In this document: positions 3,030 to 51,924 of the stretch, one piece after another
How positions within the stretch are numbered: the first letter of the stretch is position 1
Layout: the number at the start of each line of letters is the position of its first letter
Source: Leptolyngbya sp. ERB_1_1
Lineage (GTDB): Bacteria > Cyanobacteriota > Cyanobacteriia > Leptolyngbyales > Leptolyngbyaceae
NCBI GenBank assembly: GCA_040289665.1
Contig: PSLO01000009.1
Location: 3,308 to 67,307 of the forward strand
Direction: 5' to 3'
DNA: 64,000 nucleotides
Notes under the pieces: model-generated
Database searches by the model: none
Told to the model about the DNA's origin: nothing
What the model saw: the letters and a program-made list of their open reading frames with translations, nothing else
Position numbers and translations under genes: made by a program

Positions 3030-3539
3030 TTAGTTGAGCGATCTCGATTGAACCACTGCAAACTCGCTCGAATTCGACAGGCTTTCCTGATCCGAATTCA
3101 CGCGCTCTAAAGTTGCCAAAAATTCCGGTATATTCTCAAACTCACAGTACGCAGACGCATATCGAATACACGCTGCCTCATTCAACGGCTGCAACTCTCG
3201 TAATACAAGTTCACTGATTTCGCGACTGGAAATTTCTCGATTCGTTCGCTGCTGCAACAGCCCTTCGATCGTACTCACAACCATTTCAACTTGTGGCGGA
3301 GTGATCGGAGTCCGTTTACAAATTCGGGTCAGTGCTCGTACTAACTTTTCTCGATCGAACCCTTCGCGATTTCCGTTCTCCTTCACCACGACCAACGGCG
3401 CAAACTCAACTCGCTCATACGTCGTAAACCGATGATTACATTTGAGACATTCTCGCCGCCGCCGCACACTTTGACCACTCTCAGCAGAGCGCGACTCCAG
3501 CACTCGGTTTTCTAAATTATGGCAAACAGGACAACGCAT
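3030..3539 (-). CDS. nrdR: NrdR-family transcriptional repressor (Zn ribbon plus ATP cone)
   Basis: MRCPVC...RVLESR...SVRRRRECLKCNHRFTTYER followed by an ATP-cone region. Confidence 0.9.
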   Translation of the reverse strand: MRCPVCHNLENRVLESRSAESGQSVRRRRECLKCNHRFTTYERVEFAPLVVVKENGNREGFDREKLVRALTRICKRTPITPPQVEMVVSTIEGLLQQRTNREISSREISELVLRELQPLNEAACIRYASAYCEFENIPEFLATLERVNSDQESLSNSSEFAVVQSRSLN

Positions 3540-29170: not shown

Positions 29171-30115
29171 GTGGAGAATCAAGCAAGTGGGTCTATGGAA
29201 CAGTCGAACCTGTTAGAACTTGCGAAGCAAGGTGAGCCAACTGCGATCGCAGCGTTGATGAATGCGGTGTTGTCCCCCAAAGGCATTACGGCACACGCAG
29301 GAATGGAGCAGGACTGTTTGTGTATCTTGTTAGAGTCTCAAAAGCCGCTCAATCAAGAGACGCTTTTGGCGTTTATTCAGAAAGGATTACAAGAGTTGGG
29401 CAATGACTCAATTCGTTTGGTTCGGACACAAGCTCAGACGATCGGAGAAGAGGGCTTTGCTTGGACACGAGAATTTTCGCTGCGATCGTCTGAGCCTTCT
29501 ACTCGTGTCGCAACGCTAACTCCCCCGGTTGAAGCCGAGGAGGAAGACAGCGAGGACGAGGAAGAAGAACTAGACGACGAATCGCTGTCGTTTCGAGGAT
29601 GGCTGAAAACCCGGTGGCGTGTGTATGCGATTCCGGTTGCGCTGGTGGTGATTGGTGGATTTATTGCGGGTGGAACGACTGCGTTTTGGTCAACTGCGAA
29701 AAGTCAGTCGCAAAATTCTTTAGAAACCGTGCTCAAGCCGCGTCAAGATAGCGCAGAAGCGAAACAGAAAGAGGCAGAAACCTATCTCAAAGCGATGATT
29801 TCAGCCCAGGAGAATTTTTATCAGCAGAAAAAACGTTTTGCCACTAGCTTAGAGGAATTAGAGCGATCGGCAAGCCTGATTTCTCAAAGCTACAGTTATG
29901 CTTACCGCTTGCGAGTGGGAACAGATTCGGTGATTGGTGCGATACCGCGCGAGAGCGATCTAAAAAGCTATATCGGTACTGTAACGATCACCCTATCGGG
30001 GACAGATAGTTTAATCTGTCGCTCTTTGAAGCCATCGGTACAGGCTCCCGAAAAGCCGAAAGCGGTCAAAGGAAGCAAGACACTCGCTTGTCCTGCTCGA
30101 TCGCAAAAAATCTAA
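29171..30115 (+). CDS. Membrane protein with C-terminal type IV pilin-like (G/H family) domain
   Basis: N-terminal [18 protein letters not shown] domain, acidic linker, TM ([17 protein letters not shown]), then [20 protein letters not shown]...RFATSLEEL pilin-like helix and a C-terminal Cys pair. Confidence 0.65.
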
Positions 30116-32043
30116 TTTGATTTTACATTCAATGAGCTTGTCAACCCCTCCGTAGAGCGACGCGCTTGCACTTCAAGATAAACGAGTAGCGCATTCACAT
30201 CCGCGGGGTTGACTCCACCGATTCGGGTTGCTTGCCCGATCGTGAGTGGACGCACCTTAGAGAGCTTTTCGCGGGCTTCTTTTGAGAGCGTTTCAATTTC
30301 GTTGTAGTTTAGCGTTTCTGAAAGTTTGCGATTTTCTTGGCGGCTGATTTGATCAATTTGATGTTGTTGGCGCTGAATATAGCCTGAATATTTGATATCG
30401 ATCTCTGCGCCTTCTTTTTCAGCACTGTTTAAGCTAGTGTTACCTAAACTGTAACGTTCGAGATCAAGATAGTGAAGTCCAGGACGACGTAAAAGTTCAG
30501 CCAGCGTGATCGATCCTTTGATCGCTTGTTGGGTCGTTTGTATGATCGCTTTTCCAATCTCATCGTGTTCTTTAATGCGTGTTTCATGCAGCCGTTCTTT
30601 TTCTGCGGCAATGTTTTCTTGCTTTTGAGTGAACAACGTCCAGCGTCGATCGTCAATTAATCCAATTTCGCGCCCCAATGGTGTAAGGCGTTGATCCGCA
30701 TTATCAGAGCGCAAGATTAATCGGTATTCCGATCGAGAAGTCAACATCCGATAAGGTTCGCGCAGATCCTTCGTGCAAAGATCATCAATTAATGTGCCAA
30801 TATAGCTTTGTTCACGCGGGAAGATCACCATCTCTTGGTTACGGCAGAACCTTGCTGCATTGATTCCAGCTACCAATCCTTGAGCCGCTGCTTCTTCATA
30901 CCCCGTTGTACCATTGATTTGTCCAGCACAAAATAGACCATTGATTTTTTTAGTCATCAAGGTCGGGTAACACTGAGTTGCAGGAAGATAATCGTATTCC
31001 ACAGCATATGCAGGGCGAAGCATTGCACAGTTTTCTAAACCGGGAAGAGATCGCAACATTTGGAGTTGAACTTTTTCGGGTAGTCCGGTTGAGAAGCCTT
31101 GAATGTAAAGCTCTGGAATGTCGCGTCCTTCGGGTTCGATAAAGATCTGATGGCTCTCTTTATCGGCAAACCGCACGATCTTATCTTCGATGCTGGGACA
31201 GTACCGAGGTCCTTTCGCATCGACCCAACCTCCATACACAGGCGATAAATGCAAATTCTCGCGGATAATGCGATGAGTTTCTGCGGTTGTGCGGGTCAAA
31301 TGACAATCCATTGTTTCTCGTTCGACCCAAACTTCTGGATCAAAGCTAAACCAGCGCACTTCCGCATCACTCGACTGACGTTCTAGGACATCAAAATTGA
31401 CCGATCGACGATCAACCCGCGCCGGGGTTCCCGTTTTCAACCGCCCCGTTTCAAATCCGAATCGATTCAGCGTCTCGGTTAACCCGATCGCCGCAAATTC
31501 TCCAGCGCGTCCTGCATCCATCGATTTGTTGCCGACCCAAATCTTCCCGCCGAGAAATGTTCCCGTCGTCAGCACTACCGCTTTGCACTCAAACGCCACC
31601 CCGAAGTAAGTTTCTACTCCAATCACTCGATCGTTTGCATCCAAAACCAGATCCGTTGCCATGCCTTCACGGATCGTCAAGTTTTCCTGATTTTCAACGA
31701 TGTTTTTCATTACCGCTGCGTATTCGCGCTTATCCGTCTGTGCCCGCAATGCCCACACCGCAGGACCGCGAGACGAATTGAGAATTCGCTTTTGCAGATA
31801 AGTTCGATCCGCCATTTTGCCAATCTCACCGCCCAACGCATCCGCTTCGTGTACCAGTTGAGATTTTGCAGGACCTCCAACCGCTGGATTACAAGGTTGC
31901 CAAGCGATTTTGTCGAGATTTAAGGTGAGCAGCAAAGTTCGACAGCCTAAACGAGCGGTTGCGAGCGCTGCCTCACATCCCGCGTGTCCGGCTCCCACGA
32001 CAACCACTTCATACGAATCAAGAAACTCTACAGGCGTGCTCAT
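30112..32043 (-). CDS. mnmG: tRNA uridine-5-carboxymethylaminomethyl modification enzyme MnmG (GidA)
   Basis: [55 protein letters not shown]. Confidence 0.97.
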
Positions 32044-32157
32044 ACTTTATCGGCGATCGGTGCAACTTCTATTTTAGAGGGCAACTTGAAACTCAAGCAG
32101 GATACCGGGAATGTTAAAGAAACCTAGAATTATCAATAAAAATCAGATATTCTAATA

Positions 32158-32171
32158 AGTACAATTGTTCT
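32158..32171 (+). promoter_or_regulatory. Cyanobacterial LexA box upstream of the lexA paralogue
   Basis: AGTAC-AAT-TGTTCT matches the cyanobacterial consensus RGTAC-NNN-DGTWCB exactly and ends 8 nt before the ATG. Confidence 0.75.
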
Positions 32172-32179
32172 AAATCGTT

Positions 32180-32812
32180 ATGACTGAGCTATCGCCCCCC
32201 AAACAAAAGCTTTTAGACTGGCTCGAAGATTATATCGATCGATATCATTCTGTGCCGTCCTACGGTGAGATGGCAGAAGCTTTAGGCTACAAATCCAAGG
32301 ACACGATTCGATTTCATCTCACGGATCTGAGAAATGCGGGGTATGTCGCTTGGAAAGAAGGAGCCGTGAAATCGTTAGTGATTTGTAAACCTCGATCGCG
32401 CAATATCCCGATTCTGGGCGTGATTGCAGCGGGGGGACTAGTGGAAACGTTTGCTGATTCTGATGTGGATGAGTATGTTGATGTTTCAACTCTGCCTCAT
32501 TTTGTTGGAAAACGGCGGCATCAAATGAGCCAGTATTTTGCGCTGCGAGTACGAGGGGATAGCATGATTGGGGCTGCGATCGCGGACGGTGATATTGTGA
32601 TTTTGCGAAAAGAATCACAGCCAAACACGATTAAAAACGGCGAAATTGTTGCGGCACGATTTGAAACTCAAACGACATTGAAGCATTTGTTTTGGAGTGG
32701 CGATCAGATTATCTTGCAGCCTGCAAATCCGAGCTATCCGGTGATTGAGAGACAGGCAGAAGAAGTCGCGATCGAAGGTGTATTCGTTGGGTTGGTGCGG
32801 GGGTTGGTTTGA
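32180..32812 (+). CDS. lexA: LexA-family repressor, divergent paralogue (intact Ala-Gly, Ser, Lys; atypical recognition helix)
   Basis: Winged helix (PSYGEMAEALGYKSKDTIRFHLTDL), PILGVIAAGG cleavage loop, GDSM, TLK. Confidence 0.8.
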   Translation: MTELSPPKQKLLDWLEDYIDRYHSVPSYGEMAEALGYKSKDTIRFHLTDLRNAGYVAWKEGAVKSLVICKPRSRNIPILGVIAAGGLVETFADSDVDEYVDVSTLPHFVGKRRHQMSQYFALRVRGDSMIGAAIADGDIVILRKESQPNTIKNGEIVAARFETQTTLKHLFWSGDQIILQPANPSYPVIERQAEEVAIEGVFVGLVRGLV

Positions 32813-32901
32813 TTGAAATCACCTTTTGTTTAACTCTCAAGACAGAGATTTTACGCGACCGGAACTGAAACAATAGAGCAGCAATTCTCAGAGTTTGTGC
32901 T

Positions 32902-33798
32902 ATGTCTTTCAGTTTTTTGGATTTGCTCTGGATATTCTTCCTTTTTTCTTCGCTGCAACCGCTTTGGCAACGCAGACAAACCGAGATGCGGCGCTACAAC
33001 ACTCTAAAAAACATTGAACGTAAGCGAAATAGCCGCGTGATTCTGCTGATACATCGTCAAGAGTCGATTAGTTTATTGGGCATTCCGCTTTCTCGCTACA
33101 TCACGCTCGAAGACTCTGAACAAATCCTCCGCGCGATTCGCTTCACCCCGCCGGATGTGCCGATCGATCTGATTTTGCACACTCCGGGTGGACTCGTACT
33201 CGCAACCGAACAAATCGCCCGCGCTTTAATTCGCCATCCTGCAAAAGTAACGGTCTATGTTCCGCACTACGCAATGAGTGGTGGCACGATGCTGGCATTA
33301 GCAGCAGATGAAATTGTGATGGATGCGAATGCGGTGTTAGGTCCAGTCGATCCGCAGTTAGGTAACTTCCCCGCAGCGAGTGTTTTGAAAGTTGTAGAAG
33401 ATAAACCAATCGGTGATATTGACGATCAGACTTTGATCATGGCGGACTTGTCGCGCAAAGCGATCGCCCAAGTTCAGCGCTTTGTCCGAACACTACTGAA
33501 CGATACGGTTCCGAAGCCGAAGATTGCACCTGAGAAAGTTGAAGCGATCATTGATGCGCTCACCACTGGAAGAGTTACCCACGATTATCCGATTACTGTC
33601 GAGGAAGCTTCAGAGCTAGGGCTACCGATCACCGTGGGACTCGATCGAGCAATCTATGATCTAATGGAATTGTATCCGCAACCTCAAGGCGGTCGTCCTT
33701 CAGTGCAATATATCCCGCTGCCGTATGAGCGTCGTCCTTCACTGCCAGAGCCGAAAGGCAGACCGTTGCAAGAAGCAGCGCGACCGCAGATGGATTAA
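32902..33798 (+). CDS. SDH-family ClpP-fold serine protease
   Basis: LIHRQE, DLILHTPGG, YAMSGGT (Ser), LGPVDPQ, THDYPI (His). Confidence 0.85.
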   Translation: MSFSFLDLLWIFFLFSSLQPLWQRRQTEMRRYNTLKNIERKRNSRVILLIHRQESISLLGIPLSRYITLEDSEQILRAIRFTPPDVPIDLILHTPGGLVLATEQIARALIRHPAKVTVYVPHYAMSGGTMLALAADEIVMDANAVLGPVDPQLGNFPAASVLKVVEDKPIGDIDDQTLIMADLSRKAIAQVQRFVRTLLNDTVPKPKIAPEKVEAIIDALTTGRVTHDYPITVEEASELGLPITVGLDRAIYDLMELYPQPQGGRPSVQYIPLPYERRPSLPEPKGRPLQEAARPQMD

Positions 33799-51196: not shown

Positions 51197-51266
51197 GATA
51201 CAAATGTTCTGAGAAAGATAAACAAATTTACTAGACGAGCGTGCAAATTTGTGATACAAGTGTTCT
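51197..51266 (+). promoter_or_regulatory. Two variant LexA boxes upstream of lexA
   Basis: GATAC-AAA-TGTTCT (51197-51210) and GATAC-AAG-TGTTCT (51253-51266), each one mismatch from RGTAC-NNN-DGTWCB. Confidence 0.65.
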
Positions 51267-51303: not shown

Positions 51304-51924
51304 ATGGAACCTCTTACCGAAGCCCAACAACAACTCTACGATTGGCTGGTTGAATACATCCGTGACCACCAACACGCTCCTTCGATTCGGCAAATGATGA
51401 CCGCGATGAATCTGAAGTCTCCGGCTCCTGTTCAAAGCCGCTTGGAGCATCTCCGCAATAAGGGCTATATCGGCTGGACAGAGGGACAAGCCCGCACGAT
51501 TCGGATTCTCAATCCGTTGCCGCAAGGAGTGCCGATTCGAGGCGCGATCGCGGCAACGAGTTTAGTTGAGACTTTCCCAGATGTGGAAGTCGAATACCTT
51601 GACTTGTCGAATTTGCTGTTGAAGCCGAATCATTTTGCTTTGAAAGTACGCGGTCACAGCATGATCGATGCGCTAATTGATGATGGCGATATTGTGATTT
51701 TGCAGCCTGTGAACGATGCGAGAGCGATTAAGAATGACACGATCGTTGCTGCCCACCATCAAGGCAAAGCGACACTGAAATACTTTGAGCGCAAAGGAAG
51801 TAAGGTAATTCTCAAACCTGGCAACCCGAATCGCGATTTGTATCCGATCACCGAAGTTCCTGCCTCAGAAGTTGAGATTCAAGGGGTTTTGGTTGGGGTT
51901 TGGCGCGGCTACGGCAAGATCTAA
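51304..51924 (+). CDS. lexA: LexA repressor with cyanobacterial-type DNA-binding domain; cleavage site reads Ala-Thr
   Basis: MEPLTEAQQQLYDWL...PSIRQMM..MNLKSPAPVQSRLEHLR...ARTIRIL, then GAIAATS, GHSM, TLK. Confidence 0.92.
   Translation: MEPLTEAQQQLYDWLVEYIRDHQHAPSIRQMMTAMNLKSPAPVQSRLEHLRNKGYIGWTEGQARTIRILNPLPQGVPIRGAIAATSLVETFPDVEVEYLDLSNLLLKPNHFALKVRGHSMIDALIDDGDIVILQPVNDARAIKNDTIVAAHHQGKATLKYFERKGSKVILKPGNPNRDLYPITEVPASEVEIQGVLVGVWRGYGKI

Follow-up and report, generated by a model that had tools for sequence, protein, structure and literature searches.

In this report, we describe two LexA repressors of the filamentous cyanobacterium Leptolyngbya sp. ERB_1_1, both encoded in a stretch of 64,000 nucleotides that we refer to as the window (positions 3,308 to 67,307 of the forward strand of contig PSLO01000009.1, assembly GCA_040289665.1; all positions below are counted from its first letter). 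LexA2 denotes the product of the gene at 32180–32812 and LexA1 that of the gene at 51304–51924, both on the forward strand; the two share 44% identity and are the only S24 proteins encoded in the 4.63-Mb genome. One lineage thus presents two contrasts, a canonical DNA-binding head without an Ala-Gly cleavage site (LexA1) versus an intact cleavage module with a new head, placed under a canonical operator (LexA2). We lean toward reading the pair as a two-tier cascade, in which the canonical LexA1 would repress lexA2 and LexA2 would act as a second-tier, damage-cleavable repressor.

Judged by its domains, predicted fold, and residues, lexA2 (210 aa) encodes a genuine full-length LexA with the cleavage residues intact. 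The N-terminus matches LexA_DNA_bind (PF01726, residues 1–62, E 1.4e-11) and the C-terminus Peptidase_S24 (PF00717, residues 77–203, E 7.6e-23), which carries the Ser-Lys dyad, and the protein scores 145.4 bits with the NCBIfam lexA equivalog model TIGR00498, above the cut-off of 110.95. The AlphaFold model, built on 54 homologues (mean predicted local distance difference test score, pLDDT, 84.8), has three N-terminal helices and a wing, followed by a beta-rich C-terminal domain. In fold comparisons, the model is closest to structures of full-length LexA (3k2z, 3jso, 1jhh, and 8trg), and the winged-helix domain matches 1lea and 3jso. A UmuD-type S24 protein can be ruled out, since LexA2 possesses a full DNA-binding domain and reaches only 52 bits with NF007621 (cut-off 110).

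Upstream of lexA2, on the same strand, lies the sequence AGTACAATTGTTCT (32158–32171), an exact match to the canonical cyanobacterial LexA box RGTAC-N3-DGTWCB as given for Nostoc PCC 7120 (Mazon et al. 2004 as summarised in PMC3091678). It is separated from the ATG at 32180 by 8 nt (aaatcgtt), as the first-pass annotation of this DNA, a reading of the letters and open reading frames (ORFs), had noted, and is the only zero-mismatch occurrence in the window. The genome as a whole holds 24 matches, fewer than the 64–83 seen in shuffled sequences, and among them, the form RGTAC-N3-TGTTCT is unique to the lexA2 box; by chance, a box would fall no more than 60 nt from any particular start codon with a probability of ~3e-4. 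Directly 5' of the box is a -10-like hexamer, TCTAAT (32151–32156, forward strand), the putative core promoter; a simple scan of 31950–33000 returned no full consensus sigma-70 promoter.

The family sample used for comparison comprised 90 species genomes in 27 genera (an order-level search gave the same 90), the genus of the window being g1. The family is of the Leptolyngbya type, with Leptolyngbya sp. AN10, Phormidium tanganyikae FI6-MK23, FACHB-63, and LEGE 13415 as close relatives. If one counts proteins of >60% identity as orthologues, LexA2 is present in 11 of the 12 g1 genomes, the missing one being a 60%-complete assembly. Outside g1, it is found in one g4 genome, in one of the eight g23 genomes, and in both g9 genomes, that is, in 4 of the 27 genera. 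When 401 genomes sampled from the class were searched, no orthologue turned up outside the family, and a search of 5.8 billion proteins returned only cyanobacterial LexA as the nearest relatives of LexA2.

A set of 91 LexA homologues, each taken together with its upstream region, falls into five classes. Class A1 has the canonical helix and a cleavage site that, depending on the genus, reads AAGG, AAGS, or AAGN or else AATS or AATG; class A2 is the LexA2 clade, with AAGG; classes A3 and A5 have other helices and Ala-His at the cleavage site; and class A4 has the helix KSNSPIQHRL and AAGG. In a maximum-likelihood tree (outgroups: the LexA proteins of Escherichia coli and Bacillus subtilis), A2 is monophyletic (Shimodaira–Hasegawa-like approximate likelihood ratio test, SH-aLRT, 100) and joins A3 and A5 in a paralogue clade (support 95), which is sister to the A1 proteins of the family and nested inside cyanobacterial LexA.

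Several further properties are those of a maintained gene. The ratio of nonsynonymous to synonymous substitutions (dN/dS), taken pairwise within the genus, is 0.046 overall, 0.049 in the N-terminal part, and 0.050 in the C-terminal part; none of the 15 orthologues shows a frameshift or a stop; helix 3 is identical in the g1 and g4 proteins, which are 74% identical overall; and the divergent arrangement of lexA2 with mnmG (30112–32043, reverse strand; Pfam GIDA, E 4.3e-162) is kept in g1, g4, and g23. Judging from these comparisons, lexA2 is an old, chromosomal, vertically inherited, and functional paralogue under strong purifying selection.

The first-pass annotation had described this gene as a second LexA with intact autocleavage residues and an altered recognition helix, and the alignment bears this description out. 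The helix 3 codons (32291–32320, residues 38–47) encode KSKDTIRFHL, compared with KSPAP(I/V)QSRL in canonical cyanobacterial LexA. The positions that contact bases in E. coli LexA (41, 42, 44, and 45) are occupied by D, T, R, and F in LexA2 and by A, P, Q, and S in LexA1, as in all 55 class A1 sequences examined, whose helix 3 is identical. Alignment to chains in the PDB gives the same register as the residue alignment with the E. coli sequence.

The cleavage motifs IAAGGLVETF, GDSM, and TLK are all present in LexA2. The scissile bond Ala84-Gly85 (gcg ggg, 32429–32434) is in register with A84-G85 of E. coli, the catalytic serine is Ser128 (agc, 32561–32563; S119 in E. coli), and the catalytic lysine is Lys168 (aag, 32681–32683; K156 in E. 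coli). Glycine at P1' is retained in 18 of the 19 class A2 sequences, and the Ser and Lys of the dyad are invariant in every LexA class, even where P1' is Thr or His. With these residues, LexA2 is predicted to cleave itself. Compared with canonical cyanobacterial LexA, the protein has an insertion of 9 residues that follows the cleavage loop (the HFVGKRRHQ region).

The positions of LexA that contact RecA can be taken from the structure of the E. coli LexA-RecA* complex (10.1101/2023.10.30.564768). The A2 clade retains K135 and E189 as in E. coli, whereas A1 proteins have P and Q; at position 79, A2 has L, and A1 often R or K. Position 153 is T in the A2 clade, and the RecA of this genome has Tyr at the F203 position (GVTYGSPE), a Tyr/Thr pairing that has been noted for T. 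thermophilus (10.1101/2023.10.30.564768). These residues weakly suggest that LexA2 is a better substrate of RecA than LexA1. The recA gene itself is at C23:4983 (contig:position), and Thr occupies the V153 pocket position in most LexA proteins of the family.

LexA1 shows the opposite combination. It has the canonical helix 3 (KSPAPVQSRL) together with GHSM and TLK, and its scissile region reads IAATSLVE versus IAAGGLVE in LexA2, so that the scissile position is Ala-Thr. A loss of cleavage in LexA1 may be inferred because the intolerance of Gly85 to substitution is known from structures of E. coli G85D and Pseudomonas aeruginosa G91D, although the dyad itself is intact. Upstream of lexA1, on the forward strand, are twin boxes, GATACAAATGTTCT (51197–51210) and GATACAAGTGTTCT (51253–51266), which are kept in g1, g4, and g23 and belong to a variant type, GATACAA(A/G)TGTTCT. 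The same is seen more widely in the Ala-Thr/GHSM subclade of LexA1 (L033–L045, L053–L055, L068, L069, and L091), whose own boxes begin with GATAC or AATAC, never with GGTAC, and are usually twins ~56 bp apart. Genes for Ala-Gly LexA1 proteins have one GGTAC-N3-TGTTCT box at about -41.

The box upstream of lexA2 is kept in 13 of the 15 orthologous promoters, from four genera: 8 are exact, and 5 have one mismatch in the right half (GATC, GTCC, or GCTC). It ends 1–10 nt 5' of the ATG and is immediately preceded by a -10-like hexamer in each of the genera (TATAGT, TATTAT, TATATT, or TATATA elsewhere). Because of this placement, transcription presumably starts inside the box, and a bound repressor would occlude the promoter. 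In genus g9, lexA2 is located away from mnmG, and the box is still with lexA2; therefore, the box belongs to lexA2. The exceptions are the sister species G038 (L011) and G044 (L013), where a deletion of ~24 bp has removed the box and the adjacent -10-like region; the two species form a natural experiment on what the box does.

Which LexA reads such boxes can be approached through the genes that share them. A position-weight scan of the genome finds boxes of the lexA2 type 5' of ssb (TAGTACACGTGCTCTA), dnaG, a UvrD-like helicase gene, and a gene for a HerA-like ATPase; no LexA box was found within 250 nt of recA. The ssb box is conserved in genera g21, g17, and g5, which have LexA1 only, and since the lexA2 box is itself conserved and of the same type as the one at ssb in these LexA1-only relatives, lexA2 is likely to be under the canonical LexA. 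The helices of A2, A3, and A5 differ from one another, yet a box of the form AGTAC-N3-NG(T/C)TCT occupies the same place in the promoters of all these genes; as the paralogue helices vary while the boxes stay alike and the A1 helix is invariant, one conserved binder is the simplest explanation. That all four base-contact residues of LexA2 differ from the canonical helix likewise favours LexA1 as the binder of the box.

Under the cascade, the LexA operator overlapping the core promoter of lexA2 would place the gene, like ssb and further genes for replication and repair, in the LexA-box regulon. LexA1, with its invariant canonical helix, would most likely be its repressor, and LexA2 would then be a second-tier, damage-cleavable repressor of a separate gene set. 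The first-pass annotation had likewise put lexA2 under a LexA of canonical specificity. The conserved box, and its counterpart at ssb in LexA1-only relatives, support that assignment, whereas the binder of the box and the existence of separate LexA2 targets are our inference from sequence.

The positions of LexA-box loci in the genome are recorded here for completeness. The boxes of the canonical type that precede ssb, dnaG, the UvrD-like helicase gene, the HerA-like gene, and possibly dnaN are at C200:7070, C103:13491, C73:32125, C2:3644, and C171:1735. Three LexA-box-like sequences lie within 1.5 kb at C175:1445–2985, close to two ORFs, one transposase-like and one encoding a zinc ribbon.

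If LexA2 is a second-tier repressor, one would like to see an operator of its own, and the first candidate is a second imperfect palindrome that had been noted at 32125–32154, between mnmG and lexA2. Its position is correct, and its extent proved smaller than claimed: only the 6-nt arms, TAGAAT (32125–32130) and ATTCTA (32149–32154), are perfect, and they are 18 nt apart, which is weak for an AT-rich spacer. Pairs of these arms with spacers of 0–40 nt occur 18 times in the genome, against roughly 10 expected, and a comparable pair flanks the ssb box. The palindrome is kept in only part of genus g1, with changes that are non-compensatory (L006, L010, and L012), and not outside the genus. We reject it as an operator of LexA2 on account of this partial conservation, the non-compensatory changes, the short arms, and the like pair at ssb; the arms are probably the -10-like hexamers of the two divergent promoters of mnmG and lexA2.

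Wider searches for targets had the same outcome, and the suggestion that LexA2 governs its own regulon found no support in the promoter, palindrome, or GAAC-N4-GTTC searches, none of which returned an operator or regulon specific to LexA2. The promoters of the 15 orthologues contain no second conserved motif. The enriched intergenic palindromes with 5-nt arms consist of repeat elements and canonical TAGTAC-N4-GTACTA boxes, with nothing attributable to LexA2, and a regulon of the Gram-positive type, GAAC-N4-GTTC, showed neither enrichment in the genome nor repair genes.

These negative results count against the cascade, and so do several other observations. Genome G011 (95% complete) has A2 and A3 proteins and no A1, and its lexA2 keeps the box without LexA1, so another LexA may bind such boxes. 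In G038 and G044, lexA2 is intact despite the loss of its box, and the link is dispensable there. If LexA1 is uncleavable, its repression of lexA2 would be blind to DNA damage. Finally, RecA sensing in cyanobacteria is itself uncertain, given a report that cleavage of Anabaena LexA is independent of RecA (as cited in PMC5101192).

Among the palindromes recovered is one of 18 bp, AGTCTACT-NN-AGTAGACT, with 14–16 copies, all intergenic (e.g., C2:17601, C12:6315, C23:59958, and C209:18087). It sits in a longer shared sequence and probably represents a small family of repeat elements.

LexA proteins generally autoregulate, and the strongest competitor of the cascade builds on this habit: LexA2 would bind the canonical-type box itself, autoregulate, and act in this genus as the damage-sensitive repressor of the LexA-box regulon, with LexA1 as a damage-blind regulator or competitor on identical or related sites. 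We consider this possible, though doubtful. Within the lexA2 promoter, nothing but the box is conserved across genera, and G011 retains the box without LexA1; of the two LexA proteins of the genome, only LexA2 has Gly at P1', and its RecA-contact residues are the more E. coli-like. AGTAC-type boxes are found at lexA2, ssb, and the HerA-like gene, whereas lexA1 has the GATAC variants. The T-I-x-x-H-L of the LexA2 helix resembles the T-V-x-x-H-L of B. subtilis LexA. Gram-positive and cyanobacterial LexA operators are alike (GAAC/GTAC-N4-GTTC; PMC3091678), and related operators can be read by different helix 3 sequences. Three points stand in the way of self-binding. LexA2 departs from the invariant canonical helix at four of the four base-contact residues; AGTAC-type ssb boxes persist in genera without LexA2, which is therefore not needed to explain them; and the similar boxes of A2, A3, and A5 genes with their different helices are better fitted by one conserved binder.

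A division of labour may be formulated that cuts across the cascade and self-binding, with the Ala-Thr LexA1 damage-blind and LexA2 the sole RecA-responsive LexA, the two being wired in series or on shared boxes, which would divide damage sensing and the reading of canonical operators between two proteins; we think that this is unlikely.

The first-pass annotation had also raised the prospect that LexA2 heterodimerises with LexA1 and so provides RecA sensing. Here, the cleavable LexA2 subunit would confer damage sensitivity on a complex that recognises canonical or hybrid operators. Both genes occur together in every sufficiently complete g1 genome (11 of 12), the C-terminal domains are similar within the overall identity given above, and the canonical box is asymmetric, with half-sites GTAC and GAAC. 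The asymmetric box is, however, also present in cyanobacteria with a single LexA (Nostoc PCC 7120, PMC3091678), and the Ala-Thr LexA1 is the sole LexA in G001, G053, G054, G058, G061, and G063 (genera g2, g21, and g23), just as LexA2 occurs without LexA1 in G011. In G010, LexA2 stands alongside an Ala-Gly LexA1, and no tight link between Ala-Thr LexA1 and the presence of LexA2 was seen across the family sample. Because each protein is found alone in some genomes, the partnership is not obligatory, which weakens the claim and makes heterodimers improbable.

Drift toward loss of a redundant duplicate would fit the patchy distribution of lexA2 (a minority of genera, and a single g23 genome) and the loss of the box in two species. 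It is contradicted by the low dN/dS with both domains equally constrained, by the shared helix of g1 and g4, and by the 15 uninterrupted orthologues, and we regard it as very improbable indeed. To a prophage or mobile-element CI-like repressor, or a recent transfer, we give next to no credence, and we reject it: S24 repressors are common in prophages and PHROG families match the S24 domain of LexA2, but these matches are partial and equally good for LexA1, the protein passes the LexA equivalog model with a LexA winged helix in place of a Cro/CI helix-turn-helix, the gene has a fixed place beside mnmG in three genera, and the tree and nearest relatives group it with cyanobacterial LexA.

The neighbourhood of lexA2 is as first described, with no phage or mobile genes around it. 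The flanking genes are mnmG and, 3' of lexA2, a gene for an SDH-family ClpP-like serine protease (32902–33798, forward strand; PF01972, E 5e-116). The protease gene is the 3' neighbour in g1 only. The pair is syntenic through that genus, and the simple terminator scan of 31950–33000 found no terminator-like site in the intervening 32813–32901, so it is possible that lexA2 and the protease gene form one transcript.

Some other paralogues of the family deserve attention in their own right. The A3/A5 proteins (L018–L031, L046, L048–L052, and L092) have IAAHSLVE at the scissile position and always keep the catalytic Ser and Lys; either His at P1' is tolerated in S24 self-cleavage or these would be uncleavable repressors that have kept the dyad. 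In two complete genomes, A5 copies are located on smaller replicons (G040:C2 and G039:C3). Class A4 (L059, L065, L081, L083, and L085; AAGGVVE) has promoters of its own with tandem ATACA-N3-GAACTA, present twice, a motif that shows that some paralogues did gain an operator of their own.

The role of cyanobacterial LexA has long been puzzling, since it appears as an SOS repressor in some species, as a regulator of carbon metabolism and motility in Synechocystis, and as a RecA-independent protein in Anabaena. The LexA1-LexA2 pair makes it possible, by comparison of two natural proteins, to tell operator recognition and damage sensing apart; should LexA2 merely share the sites of LexA1, it is an ordinary duplicated repressor. 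The family holds at least four LexA paralogue classes, and in two of them, the combination of Ala-His with a retained Ser-Lys could represent a new cleavage specificity. How strict the Ala-Gly rule of S24 self-cleavage is could also be tested on the paralogues that have Thr or His at P1' and keep the dyad without exception.

Relative to canonical cyanobacterial LexA, LexA2 shares the fold, IAAGGL(V/I)E, GDSM, TLK, and the type of operator over its gene, and differs in helix 3, the 9-residue insertion, and the K135- and E189-type residues. For LexA1, the relevant precedent is the LexA of Synechocystis PCC 6803, an uncleavable, non-SOS global regulator (PMC3091678, PMC7567884), which shows that a cyanobacterial LexA can do without a scissile bond. 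The difference is that the Synechocystis protein has Gly-Gly, with Asp in place of the catalytic Ser, and no cleavable partner, whereas LexA1 retains Ser and Lys and is accompanied by LexA2. Duplication of lexA in cyanobacteria is listed only for Cyanothece ATCC 51142 (PMC5101192). The A2/A3/A5 paralogue group is apparently undescribed, as we found no literature account of it, nor one of an Ala-Thr canonical LexA combined with a cleavable, diverged copy.

A second LexA that recognises a different operator is known from Pseudomonas putida, Xanthomonas, and Geobacter, and in P. putida, LexA2 heads the imuA-imuB-dnaE2 mutagenesis cassette. The Leptolyngbya gene differs in this respect, with no conserved partner gene, such as a mutagenesis cassette, 3' of it in the orthologues. 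The closest parallel is that of Leptospira interrogans (PMC3789691, Fonseca et al. 2013), whose LexA2 recognises a palindrome of its own and whose lexA2 promoter is a target of both LexA proteins. Both systems have two full-length, apparently cleavable LexA proteins; their DNA-binding specificities diverge in Leptospira and probably also here, and the primary LexA, which binds the lexA2 promoter in Leptospira, would do so here as well. In Leptospira, lexA2 probably arrived by lateral transfer, and the LexA2 palindrome TTGTA-N10-TACAA lies in its promoter, whereas the Leptolyngbya gene is an old vertical paralogue with no conserved separate palindrome, and its primary LexA is without Ala-Gly. 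Circuits with two LexA proteins are, therefore, already known, and the Leptolyngbya pair would be a new variant of them.

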